Shown here piece by piece: positions 13,554 through 23,831 of a DNA stretch of 64,000 nt. This stretch comes from Octopus vulgaris (lineage: Eukaryota), in NCBI GenBank assembly GCA_951406725.2, contig OX597839.1:3100001-3164000 (forward strand), given 5' to 3'. The translations under genes and the position numbers were made by a program. Within the stretch, counting starts at the first letter, position 1. Each line of letters opens with the position of its first letter. The notes beneath the pieces were generated by a model. It did not search any database. It was not told where the DNA came from and saw only the letters and a program-made list of their open reading frames with translations.

Positions 13554-14046
13554 ACAACACCACACCGCAGCCACACAACCACATACTACTCACACACCTA
13601 CACACCACAACACAACACACAAACCACCATACATCACCAAACCACTTCACCACATAGCAACACCCTGCACACACTAGCATTGACCACTTCCTCGCATCCA
13701 CACCACACATCACCATACCACACCCACCATGCCACACCACATCACACACACTAGCACTGACCACTTCTCGGCGCGCACACCATCATCCGCACGCCTACAC
13801 ACACGTCAAGATCACCAGCCCCAATCCAAACGTACACACTCGCTCTCAAATACACACGCAGGGGCACCTTCGTTTTGGGATCACCACTATTTTATTATCT
13901 CCCCTTCTTCCTAGCTCTCTTATCTGTCCACCTCTGTCCAGCCATCGCTATGATCGATCGCTAGCCACTGAAGCTTTTTTTATTCTCCCTCTGTTTATTT
14001 TCTCGTGTTCCTTTCTGTTGAAGAGCCTAGGCTCGAAACGTAAAAT
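13554..14046 (+). mobile_element. PLE-type 3' fragment ending in a minimal HHR-like motif
   Basis: CA-rich tract, then ctttCTGTTGAagagcctaggctcGAAACGTAaaa, homologous to 21630-21667. Confidence 0.6.
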
Positions 14047-14101
14047 ATTTTATCACCCTAGAACCGTTGTATACACACACACACACACACACACACACAA
14101 A

Positions 14102-16073
14102 TGTAGTGATGGTTTGTTGCCAACTGAATGTGGCAGTCCCAGGAAAGAGGAAAATGTTACTGCTATTTAGCCCCATGAAACACCGTTACCAGTTGGCCAC
14201 GTGACACAAGCATTCTAGGCCCTTATAGTTTCAAACATGAGAGATAAGCACCTCCACCCAGCAAAGCCAGCATCCAGAGACTAGTTTCAGAGTCATTGCT
14301 TATCATCAGTCTGGAGTAGCATGGCTTGCTAGCTTAATTCATTATTACAGGCACAAGGCCTAAATACAGAGAGGACATACAAAGACATACGGGAACAAAA
14401 AACACATGAAAAAAAGAATGTAAAATGAATTAAATTACAATGAAAATGAGATGTTCATCTCGGTCCTGCTCCGAGATGAAACCGTGAACTCCTTCCCCCC
14501 ACCCATTTTTTAAATTTACATTTTAACTAAATATTTCCAGCCCCGCTCGGAGGCGAAACTGCGACTTCCCTTTTGACTTTCACCATACAATTTTAAAACT
14601 TTTTTTTTTAAATATTCGTTCATATATTTCCAGAATTTACTTATTTCCTTTTTTTTTAGCAATAAGTTTAAGCAAATGCTTTTCACACAGTTTCTAAAAT
14701 AAATCACGACTTACCATTTCCTCTCCTTTTCGTCCACATTATTCACCACCGAGGTGCAGGGTTCGACATCTACCTCCAGCCTCAGTCAGATCAATCTTTC
14801 ACAATGTCTTTCAATTTTGAAATTCTTTCAAGTTTGGGCTGTCCTATATTTCACAATAAATTTTCCTTTTGTCTGTGTTTTGCGTGTTTTCACTTTTTGT
14901 CTCTATATTTCCGCAGTTTTTGGCTTCCACGTGATTGTGTCCGTGTATCCGTGTATTTGTGTGTCTGTATGTTCGTTTGACTGTAATTCTACGTGTTTCG
15001 TCTGTGTGTCTATGTCTTTAGGTTTCCGTAATTCTGGGTTGTCTTGTTTCTGTCCGTTATTACTTGTGTGCTTTTGCCTGTTCATGTGTTTAAGTGCCTG
15101 CTGGTCTGAATGCCTCTGTACTTGTAAGTTCTTTACTGGTGATCCTACTGGTAAATCTTCCTCGTTTCTCGTCGTGAGTTGGGCTTCTTCTTCCATTGTT
15201 TTGTGCTTCTTTAATCCCACTATTATCGGTGACTTCCTTCTCTCTTCGCTTTTCTTCTTCAGCTCCGAATTAAAAATTGCTGCTATTATCTACTCTGGGT
15301 CTATCGACGGTGGGATTCATCCCACCCTAATTCTAACAATTCTTTTGCCCAAAGTTTAGCATCAACGTCCATTTTTCTCCCTGTATCAGCCTGTTGTCGG
15401 GTTTTTTCGCCTCCTCTTCTGATACACAGGTTACTACTATCGACGCATGTATCTTTCCTCTTGTAAAGAACGTTATAGTCTCCTATTTTTTCTTCCAAGA
15501 TTTCTTCTATCTCTTCCTGCGGCGCGTGTTCCATTCTTCTATTTTCATTCAAAAATATTCTGAATATGACCGTCTTCGTTTCTATTTTCCTTTTTCCTCC
15601 ACTGGCAGGGTCATTTTTATATTTGACCCGTCTTTCTTTACCATACCATGATATTTGTTTATTAGCTTCTCATTCCACTGTATCATCTCCGACTTCAACA
15701 CACGTGGGTCTAGAGGAACTCGACCTCCAGTAGCCTCTGCGTAAATTTTCAATTTTTCAATTGTTTCACTACCACCCAATAATGGCGGCTTCGCACAAAA
15801 AATCGGCTAGAATTCTTCAAAAAATAACAAAGGCGTGGCCTTGCTAGCTGTCGACGCTTTGAAAACATAGATTTCAATATCTTAGAGAAATTTATACAGT
15901 AGATACACGATAAAGTGATGGTTTGTTGCCAACTGAATGTGGCAGTCCCAGGAAACGGAAAATTCTACTGTTATTTAGCTACAGGAAACACCGTTTCCAG
16001 TTGGATATGCGACACAAGCGTTATGTGTCCTTATGTTTTCAAAGAAGGGAGATAAGCACCTCTACCCAGCAAA
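14102..16073 (-). mobile_element. HHR-bearing non-autonomous retroelement with L1/Tx1-ORF1-like remnant and direct terminal repeat
   Basis: Frameshifted KTVIFRIFLN...EEIEEILEEK...RIRVGWIPPSIDPE*IIAAI resembles the ORF1 at 33.7-34.3 kb; 15914-16073 is a diverged direct repeat of 14105-14265; HHR at 14273-14315. Confidence 0.7.
14273..14315 (-). ncRNA. Type I hammerhead ribozyme
   Basis: Minus strand UCCAGA-CUGAUGA-weak stem II-GAAAC-UA-GUC^UCUGGA. Confidence 0.8.
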
Positions 16074-16101
16074 AGTGTCACATGGCCAACTGGAAACGGT
16101 G

Positions 16102-17330
16102 TTGTTAGAATTAGGATGGGAAGAATCTCACCGTCGATAGACCCAAAGTAGATAATAGCAGCAATTTTTAATTCGGAGCTGAAGAAGAAAAGCGATGAGA
16201 GAAGGAAGTCAGTGACGATAGTGGGATTAAAGAAGCACAAAACAATGGAAGAGGAAACCCGACCCACGACGAGAAACGAGGAAGATTTACCAGTAGGATC
16301 ACCAGTAAAGAACTTACAAGTACAGAGTCATTCAGACCAGCAGGCACTTAAACACATGAACAGGCAAAAGCACACAAGTAATAACGGACAGAAACAAGAC
16401 AACCCAGAATTACGGAAACCTAAAGACATAGACACACAGACGAAACACGTAGAATTACAGTCAAACGAATACACAGACACACAAATACACGAACACACGG
16501 ATACAATCACGCGAAAGCCAAAACCTGCAGAAATATAGAGACAAAAAGCGACAACATGCAAAACATAGACAAAAAGAAAATTTATTGTGAAATATAGGAC
16601 AGCCCAAACTTGAAAGAATTTCAAAATTGAAAGACATTGTGAAATATTGATCTGACTGAGGCTGGAGGTAGATGTCGAACCCTGCACCTCGGTGGTGAAT
16701 AATGTGGACGAAAATTCGTGATTTATTTCAGAAACTGTGTGAAATACATTTGGTTAAACTTACTGCTGAAAAAAAAAAGGAAGAAAAAAAGGAAATAAGT
16801 AAATTCTGGAAATATATGAACGAACATTTTAAAAAAAAAAGTTTTGATAATGTATGGTGAAAATCAAAAGGGAAGTCGCAGTTTCGCCTCCGAGCGGGGC
16901 TGGAAATATTTAGTTAAAATGTAAATTTAAAAACTTAAAGAAGTTCACGGTTTCATCTCGGAGCAGGACCGAGATGAACGTCTCATTTTCATTGTAATTG
17001 AATTCATTTTACATTCATTTTTTCATGTGTTTTTTGTTCCCGTATGTCTTTGTATGTCCTCTCTGTATTTAGGCCTTGTACCTGTAATAATGAATTAAGC
17101 TAGCAAGCCATGCTACTCCAGACTGATGATAAGCAATGACTCTGAAACTAGTCTCTGGATGCTGGCTTTACTGGGTGAAGGTGCTTATCTCTCATGTTTG
17201 AAACTGTAAGGGCCTAGAATGCTTGTGTCACGTGGCCATCTGGAAACGGTGTTTCATGGGGCTAAATAGCAGTAACACTTTCCTCTGTCCTGGGACTGCC
17301 ACATTCAGTTGGCAACAAACCATCACTACA
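16102..17330 (+). mobile_element. Inverted, 5'-truncated second copy of the 14102-15339 element
   Basis: Reverse complement of 14102-15339 with scattered substitutions and small indels; duplicated ORFs 14903-15220/16212-16538. Confidence 0.92.
17117..17159 (+). ncRNA. Type I hammerhead ribozyme
   Basis: tccaga CTGATGA taagcaatgactct GAAAC ta GTC tctgga; stem I extends agcca/tggct (17106-17110/17163-17167). Confidence 0.8.
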
Positions 17331-17339
17331 TGTGTGTGT

Positions 17340-17371
<32 letters not shown>

Positions 17372-17388
17372 TTCTGTGTGTGTGTGTG

Positions 17389-17541
17389 TATACAACGGGC
17401 TTCTCTCAATTTTCGTCCACCAAATCCACTCACAAGACTTTGGTCATCCCGAAGCTATATTAGATAGCTACCTAAGGTGTCACGCTGTAGGACTGAATCG
17501 GAAACCATGTGGTGGGGAAACAAGCTTCTTACCACACAGCC
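17389..17541 (-). mobile_element. SINE family A, diverged 5' half
   Basis: aaatccactcacaag...aagctttcttaccacacagcc. Confidence 0.8.
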
Positions 17542-18735: not shown

Positions 18736-18942
18736 TAACGGGAAGCTTTATGAAAATAAACAAAAGACGAAGGCAGGTGGAATACAAACAAACAATTGTA
18801 TTAGTATGGCGCTCAGGAATATAAAAAAAAAAACGAGTCTTTTACGTTTCGAGCCTACTCTCTTCAACAGAAAGATACACAGAAAAGAAACAAGGAGAGA
18901 AAAAAATTGTGTGCAGAAGCTAGCGAATCAACATGGCGATAT
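18736..18942 (-). mobile_element. Penelope-type terminal repeat (pLTR) copy with HHR-like motif
   Basis: Reverse complement of about 21565-21766; tcttt-CTGTTGA...GAAACGTA-aaaga at 18838-18875. Confidence 0.75.
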
Positions 18943-20835: not shown

Positions 20836-21764
20836 CCCCCCTCCTCATCTAACCCCCCTCCCCCCTCCTCACCTATCCTTTCTCCCCCCGACCCCTACTT
20901 CTACAGTCCTTCATCCTTTCACCCCTACTCCCCTTCCCTTCTTCCCTCTTTCTCCCTCCCTCTTCCCCTTCCCTCTGCTCCCTCACTCCCTCTCTCCCTC
21001 TTTCCTCCTTCATCCCCCTTCTCCCCCATCCTCTCCTCTTCCCCCTCTTCTTCCCCTCGCCTTCTCTCCCCCTCTTCTCCCCCTCCCCTCTTCTCCTCAC
21101 TACACCACATGACTTTACACATCACATCACATATGATGTGCCATACTAATACACACACCAACTAATACATACTAATACGTACTAATACATACCAGTACAT
21201 ACTAATACTTACACCAACCCTATACATACACACGTCCAGACCCCGCATACGCACTTATACTCTCTCACACACACACACACACACCTATACATACCAATAC
21301 GTACTAATACATACTAATACATACTAATACATACACCAACCCCATACATACGCACGTCCAGACCAATCTTACGCACTAATACTCTCTCATACACACACAC
21401 ACACCCTTATACATACTAATACATACACCAACCCTATACATACACACATCCAGACCCCTCCCACGCACTTTTAGCTGGTCCCTCAACCCTTTTATCAACC
21501 CTATTATCTCCCCTTATTTCGCTCTCGCGTCTCATGTTTGATCTTTGACCTCTGGCCGAAATCAGATCGCCATGTTGATTCGTTAGCTACTGCACGCATT
21601 TTTTTTCTCTCCTTCTTTCTGTGTTTTTCTCTCTCTGTTGAAGAGCGTAGGCTCGAAACGTTAAAGACTTGTTTTATTTATATTTCCTGAGCGCCATACT
21701 AATACAATTGTTCGTTTGTTTTCCACCTGCCTTCGTCTTTTGTTTATTTTCATAAAGCTTCCCG

Positions 21765-21766: not shown

Positions 21767-21804
<38 letters not shown>

Positions 21805-21999
21805 TAATTCTCTAAAAGGGATATAGACAGTAACTGCTCGATAACATAAGGGACTAAAGCCATCTGAATATGGCTAGGGACAGGGCAGGGTGGTGGGGGT
21901 GTTACTGTTGCATTTAGCCCCAGGCGAACATCGACGTCACCAGAAAGGCTCGACACCGTCACGGTGCCCTTAACCTGCAAAGGGAGGTAATTCCCCGAT

Positions 22000-22073
22000 G
22001 AAGCGGAAACCACACACGGACCATGGTTTCAAGGTGTATTGCCTATCATCGGCGTGTGGTAGGCCTCCGCTTC
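22000..22073 (-). ncRNA. Type I hammerhead ribozyme (CCGAUGA core)
   Basis: Reverse complement of 22489-22562. Confidence 0.75.
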
Positions 22074-22488
22074 CTCGACGAATTCTCACTCTGCAGGATT
22101 TTCTTATATAGATTTTCAAGCAAAATACATTTGCTGATTTCGAAAATCTGTTCGAAAGCAATAATAATTCTCTAAAAGGGATATAGACAGTAACTGCTCG
22201 ATAACATAAGGGACTAAAGCCATCTGAATATGGCTAGGGACAGGGCAGGGTGGTGGGGGTGTTACTGTTGCATTTAGCCCCAGGCGAACATCGACGTCAA
22301 CACCCCCACCACCCTGCCCTGTCCCTAGCCATATTCAGATGGCTTTAGTCCCTTATGTTATCGAGCAGTTACTGTCTATATCCCTTTTAGAGGAATTATT
22401 ATTGCTTTCGAACAGATTTTCGAAATCAGCAAATGTATTTTGCTTGAAAATCTATATAGAAAATCCTGCAGAGTGAGAATTCGTCGAG

Positions 22489-22562
22489 GAAGCGGAGGCC
22501 TACCACACGCCGATGATAGGCAATACACCTTGAAACCATGGTCCGTGTGTGGTTTCCGCTTC
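22489..22562 (+). ncRNA. Type I hammerhead ribozyme (CCGAUGA core); repeated at 22849-22922, 23209-23282 and 23569-23642
   Basis: cacacg CCGATGA t-agg caataca cct-t GAAAC catg GTC^ cgtgtg; distal stem I gaagcgga/tccgcttc. Confidence 0.78.
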
Positions 22563-23794
22563 ATCGGGGAATTACCTCCCTTTGCAGGTTAAGGGCACCG
22601 TGACGGTGTCGAGCCTTTCTGGTGACGTCGATGTTCGCCTGGGGCTAAATGCAACAGTAACACCCCCACCACCCTGCCCTGTCCCTAGCCATATTCAGAT
22701 GGCTTTAGTCCCTTATGTTATCGAGCAGTTACTGTCTATATCCCTTTTAGAGAATTATTATTGCTTTCGAACAGATTTTCGAAATCAGCAAATGTATTTT
22801 GCTTGAAAATCTATATAAGAAAATCCTGCAGAGTGAGAATTCGTCGAGGAAGCGGAGGCCTACCACACGCCGATGATAGGCAATACACCTTGAAACCATG
22901 GTCCGTGTGTGGTTTCCGCTTCATCGGGGAATTACCTCCCTTTGCAGGTTAAGGGCACCGTGACGGTGTCGAGCCTTTCTGGTGACGTCGATGTTCGCCT
23001 GGGGCTAAATGCAACAGTAACACCCCCACCACCCTGCCCTGTCCCTAGCCATATTCAGATGGCTTTAGTCCCTTATGTTATCGAGCAGTTACTGTCTATA
23101 TCCCTTTTAGAGAATTATTATTGCTTTCGAACAGATTTTCGAAATCAGCAAATGTATTTTGCTTGAAAATCTATATAAGAAAATCCTGCAGAGTGAGAAT
23201 TCGTCGAGGAAGCGGAGGCCTACCACACGCCGATGATAGGCAATACACCTTGAAACCATGGTCCGTGTGTGGTTTCCGCTTCATCGGGGAATTACCTCCC
23301 TTTGCAGGTTAAGGGCACCGTGACGGTGTCGAGCCTTTCTGGTGACGTCGATGTTCGCCTGGGGCTAAATGCAACAGTAACACCCCCACCACCCTGCCCT
23401 GTCCCTAGCCATATTCAGATGGCTTTAGTCCCTTATGTTATCGAGCAGTTACTGTCTATATCCCTTTTAGAGAATTATTATTGCTTTCGAACAGATTTTC
23501 GAAATCAGCAAATGTATTTTGCTTGAAAATCTATATAAGAAAATCCTGCAGAGTGAGAATTCGTCGAGGAAGCGGAGGCCTACCACACGCCGATGATAGG
23601 CAATACACCTTGAAACCATGGTCCGTGTGTGGTTTCCGCTTCATCGGGGAATTACCTCCCTTTGCAGGTTAAGGGCACCGTGACGGTGTCGAGCCTTTCT
23701 GGTGACGTCGATGTTCGCCTGGGGCTAAATGCAACAGTAACACCCCCACCACCCTGCCCTGTCCCTAGCCATATTCAGATGGCTTTAGTCCCTT

Positions 23795-23831
<37 letters not shown>

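Follow-up and report, generated by a model that had tools for sequence, protein, structure and literature searches.

The region at positions 14,102 to 16,073 of the stretch of Octopus vulgaris contig OX597839.1 analysed here (64,000 nucleotides; hereafter the window) is made up of two nested elements rather than one, a decayed coding LINE fragment lying within a small hammerhead retrozyme. The insert is an ORF1-only LINE derivative, HAL1-like in its make-up, which occupies the predicted start of the retrozyme and was quite probably placed there by an autonomous LINE of the L1 group (Tx1-like) whose end falls at the same nucleotide, through its endonuclease and reverse transcriptase. Target duplications bound the insert, the nesting recurs in other copies, autonomous partners are present in the genome, insertions at the first base (+1) of U1 and U2 snRNA genes accompany those in retrozymes, and a motif lies at a fixed spacing upstream. 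The hypothesis that promoter position sets the insertion site is strong as to pattern, and a mechanism is proposed below. The window copy itself is a dead example that has been rearranged twice. Its features are as follows.

15914 to 16073, minus strand: upstream piece of the host retrozyme, unit positions ~70-230; 85% identical to 14265-14105 and mapping onto the 340-bp solo unit
15850 to 15913, minus strand: remainder of the upstream retrozyme unit; the snRNA-type promoter motif, at -58 in intact copies, is absent here
15833 to 15849, minus strand: target-site duplication, 5′ copy, 17 nt
14335 to 15832, minus strand: ORF1-only LINE derivative (HAL1-like), 1.5 kb; undeleted copies are ~1.7-1.8 kb
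14860 to 15750, minus strand: frameshifted ORF1 remnant, bounds approximate; tblastn matches at 15743-15275
14516 to 14707, minus strand: 63-codon frame, not ORF2-like and not kept open in other copies
14454 to 14480, minus strand: 10-bp hairpin within the LINE derivative's 3′ UTR (z -2.97)
14335 to 14346, minus strand: 3′ end of the LINE derivative, an AATAA-type tail without poly(A)
14319 to 14334, minus strand: target-site duplication, 3′ copy
14273 to 14315, minus strand: type I hammerhead with damaged stem II and a palindromic 2-bp stem III; predicted cut between 14279 and 14278
14105 to 14265, minus strand: downstream retrozyme part, stopping at unit position ~230, one of the two common 3′ ends of the family
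14064 to 14101, minus strand: (TG)n and a 10-nt flank; an inverted repeat of both lies at 17331-17398
16075 to 16103, plus strand: short inverted retrozyme piece, joined to the right arm by a 4-nt microhomology
16102 to 17097, plus strand: LINE derivative, 3′ half only, as an inverted copy carrying the same deletion
17098 to 17327, plus strand: retrozyme in inverted copy, including the second hammerhead (17117-17159)

A first-pass annotation had placed the hammerhead and a direct terminal repeat on one element with the LINE-like coding remnant. The repeat is real (16073-15914 against 14265-14105; 85% across 161 bp), as are the 10-bp hairpin at 14480-14454 (z -2.97) and the frameshifted LINE ORF1 remnant, which matches an intact ORF1-only element by tblastn (e-value: 8e-12), the ORF1 of the latter in turn matching the ORF1 of autonomous LINEs (e-value: 2e-35). 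The hammerhead and the direct repeat belong to the retrozyme, however, and target duplications flank the ORF unit. When this unit is subtracted, the window copy is a 1.5-mer of the retrozyme, and the ‘terminal repeat’ is thus the tandem overlap of the retrozyme itself. Position 14334 is predicted to be both the retrozyme +1 and the base of an extended stem I. The peptide at 14707-14516, previously read as the end of an ORF2, finds no counterpart in three intact ORF2 proteins (best e-value: 1.1), and a further candidate identity, the C-terminal domain of sister ORF1-only families, was rejected by profile comparison (e-value of at least 16). In comparison with other copies, the window ORF1 has lost its CCHC knuckle to a ~325-bp deletion at ~15245, while a ~50-bp stretch carrying the predicted snRNA-type promoter motif has been deleted from the upstream retrozyme unit.

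The hammerhead core is present on the minus strand at 14309 and stem I is paired at all positions tested (5/5 pairs), but only 2/4 pairs are left in stem II, such that the ribozyme stands in a damaged form. The 89-nt fold is no better than those of shuffled sequences (z -0.70), and no Rfam hammerhead model matched at an e-value of 10 or below within 13900-14500, or stood among the 150 listed of 334 whole-window matches. The conserved core, NUH cut site and stem I closure are, as far as the sequence can tell, those of a type I hammerhead. Across ten sister families, 47/50 stem I cells are paired against 31 under permutation (0/20000 shuffles as high) and 34/40 stem II cells are paired (173/20000 shuffles as high); inside the window's own retrozyme family no covariation was found. 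Stem III comprises 2 bp and is palindromic in 8/12 parsed copies, and its palindromic form in most families suggests that cutting may depend on dimers. The ribozyme in the window is probably weak. The direct repeat starts 13 nt past the predicted cut between 14279 and 14278, an offset to which the first-pass annotation had drawn attention. Although present in the window, it does not recur, the inner arm ends of 19 distinct F1/F2b pairs being scattered over the whole unit (positions 17 to 333), with only three at 15 nt or less from the cut.

The host retrozyme also exists without the insert. An exact hammerhead-core pattern has 148 matches in the genome, and 25 of 30 such loci lack an upstream LINE end, while the other five each have such an end, at precisely the same nucleotide. 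Solo units measure ~340 bp, lie in tandem (L159/L185) and are free of ORFs, and in being a non-coding tandem with a type I hammerhead, within the range of 170-400 nt, the unit appears to fit a non-LTR retrozyme. Retrozyme 3′ ends peak at unit positions 225-234 (31/115) and 280-289 (38/115), and head-to-head pairs are common. Contigs of the retrozyme family, themselves without ends, were recovered in 4/4 sequencing runs whose RNA nature is a guess. A 3′-box-like motif follows U1 and seemingly also the hammerhead hairpin in several retrozyme families (L277, L185), which suggests that the retrozymes may undergo snRNA-like 3′ processing. No autonomous Penelope-like element (PLE) parent of the retrozyme was found in the one active PLE family examined, which gave a 70% match at only 1/30 loci and no continuity. 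A Penelope-like family at L285-L314 is active, with a C-terminal GIY-YIG domain, frames of up to 1025 aa and many head-to-head pairs; no canonical hammerhead was found in the first 500 bp of its 3′ UTR.

The window holds a second retrozyme at 21800-23799, consisting of 4.2 tandem 360-bp units (99%) and an inverted arm with (TA)n on both sides. Its hammerhead core lies at 22510; +1 is predicted at 22483, and the promoter motif stands at -58 relative to it. The 360-bp unit had been proposed to descend from the family at 14,102 to 16,073; it is instead a young sister retrozyme family and not a derivative. There are 670 exact intact sites of this family genome-wide, at none of which a LINE end was found, the two matches being variants of the family's own promoter. 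Another short repeat occurs at 13944-14045 (plus strand), 18840-18940 and 21566-21665, within which 14018-14039 resembles a degenerate minimal hammerhead of a different family, with a perfect palindromic stem.

The insert is an ORF1-only LINE derivative that entered with a 16-17-bp target duplication, and units of the window family measure 1.7-1.8 kb between duplications. The linkage of ORF and hammerhead recurs in other copies, and chance nesting is ruled out. For 42 distinct copies of this family, a script placed the 5′ ends in F1 (22), F4 (8), F3 (1), tandem (8) and other (3) contexts; L077 and L072 were reassigned to F1 and L059 to tandem by eye, and after this check the figures are 24 F1, eight F4, one F3, eight tandem and one 5′-truncated copy. 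As such, 41/42 of the 5′ ends are placed either at the +1 site of a retrozyme or after the tail of another element. The start of the target is duplicated on both sides in 19/21 copies with a called 3′ end. Copies in F1, F4 and F3 targets are intermixed on the tree of the window family, and those in F4 emerge at four points. The same insertion nucleotide is used by at least four ORF1-only families whose 3′ UTRs differ. A related family, with intact 443-aa frames and poly(A) and without a hammerhead, is arranged as tandem units of 1.79 kb. Tandem trains of different intact ORF1-only elements were also observed (L111-L112, L115-L117, L119), with a C-terminal domain that has no Pfam match.

The ORF1 of one copy (L019) contains a zf-CCHC domain (Pfam; e-value: 5e-5), and the ORF1 core of a relative is predicted to adopt two RRM-like folds plus the knuckle (pLDDT 84), for which the best Foldseek matches are tandem RRMs (e-value: 4e-5). 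A fold search with VIA returned ferredoxin/RRM-like folds at Z of 8.3 or lower and no L1 ORF1p row, the Atlas places ORF1 in a ZCCHC3-type cluster at 0.90 (a lead), and a PDB sequence search with the ORF1 alignment gave weak knuckle matches only. An ORF1 database search had 0 matches among 8000 candidates. HAL1 proper, of mammalian L1 origin, was considered and rejected for this ORF1 with its CCHC knuckle and predicted tandem RRM-like folds.

Full-length copies bearing a reverse transcriptase (RT) were sought and found, and their ORF2 is of the L1 group and not of the PLE type. ORF2 fragments stop at the same retrozyme junction as the ORF1-only derivative, and intact copies encode ORF1 and a 1134-1148-aa ORF2 with Exo_endo_phos (APE), RVT_1 and zf-RVT Pfam domains. 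Among solved structures, human L1 ORF2p is closest to the partner RT (e-value: 7e-63, against 2e-25 for R2), and the autonomous ORF1 matches that of the window family in 3/4 copies tested (e-values: 1e-21 to 6e-28). The eleven in-genome RTs form one clade (100/100) in a tree with 28 of 120 database homologues. The nearest named relative among the 120 homologues listed is a protein of Argonauta hians, and no named Tx1 reference occurs among them; the designation Tx1-like, drawn from architecture and target preference in a comparison holding no such reference, is a lead. Some copies in different targets are near-identical: a U2- and an F7-inserted copy are identical over 486 aligned columns, and the endonucleases of U2- and F5-inserted copies differ at 3/234 residues. 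Young intact LINE arrays with a ~5.28-kb period occur in non-retrozyme targets (L251-L256, L258, L260, L263, L264, L267-L269), one of them 32 nt behind a TATA box and several in one common repeat.

Targets were surveyed with a protein query from the ORF2 end, which is blind to the flanks. The best 30 of 150 places were examined, and of these ORF2 matches 25 end in a retrozyme (one being the query itself), four at U2 +1 and one is truncated. By the >20%-of-flanks measure given in the available text of PMC4494074, the partner lineage therefore shows a target preference (retrozymes 25/30, U2 4/30). The 25 retrozyme ends share one structural position, and in retrozymes the LINE junction lies 24-33 nt ahead of the hammerhead core, close to the base of the extended stem I. 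A wider set of 59 distinct ORF2 ends, part of which came from queries that contained the junction, comprises 37 in retrozyme families, four in U2 and 18 elsewhere. At L270 the order is U2 promoter, U2 nucleotides 1-14, a full LINE and a complete intact U2. Insertion into U1 was predicted beforehand, and one insertion at U1 +1 was found among 42 U1 matches, in a 5′-truncated copy without duplication. Since the same LINE lineage is found at the first base of both U1 and U2, it likely aims at snRNA-type promoters.

Six distinct U1/U2 promoters have a common motif at -56 to -59. A matrix was built from these six promoters alone and its best site sought in 150 nt. This site falls at -57 to -60 from the junction in the nine retrozyme families with a readable promoter, namely F1 (two sub-families), F2b, F4, F5, F6, F7, F8, F9 and the 360-bp unit (upstream of F2 and F3 is not readable), with a background tail of 1e-5 to 4e-4 per site where computed. 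In one F6 copy (L335) with an altered motif the best site lies elsewhere. The retrozyme families are related and share the motif by descent, so that the nine amount to roughly one independent test; U1 and U2 share no descent with the retrozymes. As the motif stands a fixed 57-60 nt upstream of the insertion point, the LINE junction is predicted to be the retrozymes' transcription start site; the motif itself would be a proximal sequence element, which would make the junction +1. One U1 promoter variant (L324:8180-8237) has an 11-nt stretch in common with the promoter of an F1 sub-family, at a 6-nt offset relative to +1, which may reflect promoter capture or else call for caution over the precise start. 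For newt satellite 2, the available portion of PMC2220036 reports a promoter of the snRNA type.

We suggest the following mechanism. The endonuclease would nick at +1 on the bottom strand and ~15 nt downstream on the top strand. An insert of full length would capture the promoter and give an RNA that opens with the ~15 duplicated nucleotides. Read-through beyond the 3′ end would yield a tail identical to the target, which could pair with the nicked primer strand, and such a tail would explain the exact 3′ junctions without poly(A). In retrozymes, an intact downstream hammerhead would trim the read-through tail at ~55 nt. The earlier proposal that a ribozyme sets the 3′ end of the LINE RNA thus survives only as a putative by-product of the insertion site, and not as a property of the LINE. 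Choice of site would combine a short sequence preference, differing between sub-families, with promoter context. The window copy afterwards lost its promoter and knuckle and underwent the inverted duplication.

How far promoter context matters separates two accounts of the nested insertion. Ordinary sequence recognition by the endonuclease, aided by read-through pairing, would account for the data with the coincidence at +1 inherited and kept as a promoter source, and the chance that this is correct is a little short of even. In keeping with this, each sub-family follows particular, related +1 sequences, the first four bases being the same in U2, F5, F7 and F9; the youngest intact arrays (14/59 ORF2 ends, one sub-clade, whose intact arrays are also the longest) have left these targets for others without the motif at -58; and the 360-bp family has no insertion. 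On the other hand, the targets of near-identical enzymes have no more than ~7 bases in common near the cut, a number insufficient to account for 29/30 matches in a 2.8-Gb genome, and U1 and U2 are struck at +1 despite being unrelated by descent to the retrozymes. The stronger account, a LINE tethered to the snRNA promoter machinery in which one endonuclease acts at the +1 of whichever gene possesses a proximal sequence element, is put forward tentatively, as a general promoter rule is weakened by the motif-less targets of the young arrays and by the 670 uninserted sites of the sister retrozyme. If true, its scope would take in U1, U2 and about ten hammerhead retrozyme families, and the LINE would take its 5′ promoter from the target, borrow the ribozyme of its host for its 3′ end and carry ORF1-only dependants.

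The second rearrangement of the window copy is an inverted duplication, of which the region described here is the left arm (14073-15339 against 16102-17359; 92%), the right arm holding a second hammerhead at 17123 on the plus strand. The inverted arms differ by 4.9% and the direct repeats by 14-17%, indicating that the inversion is younger than the insertion. Local DNA copying is moderately favoured over a new retrotransposition as the origin of the inverted arm. The contrary view, that both arms were laid down at once when an enzyme of the Penelope type copied a read-through RNA of the composite again, is the less likely. This retrozyme family typically shows head-to-head arms, microsatellite flanks and joins by microhomology, as do, to judge from the available text of PMC8557442, Penelope-like elements. 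However, both window arms end symmetrically at ~230 with a common flank, against 9/9 asymmetric ends (~285 versus 208-231) in the other inverted pairs with both ends readable; the arms are much closer to one another than are the direct repeats; and, in two sets of 40 scored candidates each, no near-identical source copy was found elsewhere. The right flank of the inverted arm, at 17389-17541, is a repeat with many window copies, which we take to be a SINE-like repeat with a microsatellite tail.

It is very improbable that the locus represents a single coding retrozyme, composed of ORF1, hammerhead and direct repeats and spreading through ribozyme-cut RNA. The ORF and the hammerhead are indeed linked in many copies, and both inverted arms in the window carry LINE and retrozyme with the same private changes. 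For the family as a whole the composite unit is nevertheless largely refuted by the target duplications, the three target families on one tree and the tandem LINE-LINE junctions, as well as by inverted pairs in which the insert is found in a single arm and the site in the other arm is intact (L092, L094, L106, L110, L177). In addition, no copy of >89% identity was found elsewhere (40 candidates scored in each of two sets). The related suggestion that a large retrozyme once captured LINE sequence fails likewise, the ORF unit switching among three retrozyme families and also occurring in tandem. Least credible of all is a Penelope-like or terminon-like element with the hammerhead in a pseudo-LTR and a gag-like ORF: a hammerhead of type I, together with inverted arms and 3′ ends in two peaks, speaks for it, but homology ties the ORF to the ORF1 of APE-RT LINEs, the unit lacks GIY-YIG or a PLE RT, and the RT-bearing partners are L1-group LINEs.

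Nested insertion of an ORF1-only derivative by a target-specific LINE can be set against several known systems. The Tx1 clade includes the target-specific LINEs Tx1, Keno, Kibi, Koshi and Tx1-Mar, and in the available text of PMC4494074 shares with the octopus lineage an APE-RT ORF2, a knuckle-bearing ORF1, targets that are multicopy RNA genes or transposons, and tandem arrays; a figure legend there names ‘satellites’ and U5 among the known targets. Relative to the clade as described in that text, the octopus lineage differs in using many unrelated sequences at one promoter-relative position, +1, with hammerhead retrozymes, U1 and U2 among them. Keno and Utopia also reside in U2 snRNA genes, where, according to the part of PMC4640811 seen, the downstream U2 begins at nucleotide 39, whereas the octopus lineage enters at U2 nucleotide 1, duplicates nucleotides 1-14 and leaves a whole, promoterless U2. 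The ORF1-only derivative resembles HAL1 (half-L1) in being a non-autonomous LINE derivative with ORF1 only, and differs from that mammalian, L1-derived element, as portrayed in the excerpt of PMC5753468, in its target specificity, the lack of poly(A) at retrozyme junctions and its occurrence as at least four families with different 3′ UTRs. The host agrees with non-LTR retrozymes in its ~340-bp tandem units, type I hammerhead, lack of an ORF and Penelope-like arrangement (PMC7229834, in part), a comparison that extends to newt satellite 2 (bioRxiv 10.64898/2026.07.22.740005 and PMC2220036, in the sections available), while the two-peaked 3′ ends and head-to-head pairs are features of the Penelope-like kind (PMC8557442, in the portion available).

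In a literature search, with Repbase and subscription papers outside its scope, no paper was found that describes retrozymes as dedicated targets of LINEs, or LINEs targeting retrozymes or snRNA +1, and no prior description was found of a target-specific LINE lineage at the promoter-relative +1 of unrelated RNA genes. Target-specific LINEs are usually taken to be readers of DNA sequence; here, near-identical enzymes arrive at the first base of unrelated RNA genes that have a promoter type alone in common, and the young intact copies make the choice between sequence and promoter tethering directly testable. In about ten retrozyme families the insertions furthermore point to the probable start site. 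They also lend support to a promoter of the snRNA type in the retrozymes of invertebrates, a matter relevant to the transcription of abundant ribozyme RNAs. Also of interest, for site-directed gene insertion, is a LINE whose copies are written in downstream of a strong small-RNA promoter. Ty3 and the Dictyostelium element TRE5 are promoter-tethered through the Pol III machinery, with a position set relative to the transcription start, while R2 inserts into rDNA, relies on the promoter of the host unit and processes the co-transcript with its own HDV-like ribozyme. Unlike in these systems, the promoter used by the octopus lineage is predicted to be of the snRNA type, and the ribozyme is the target's own.
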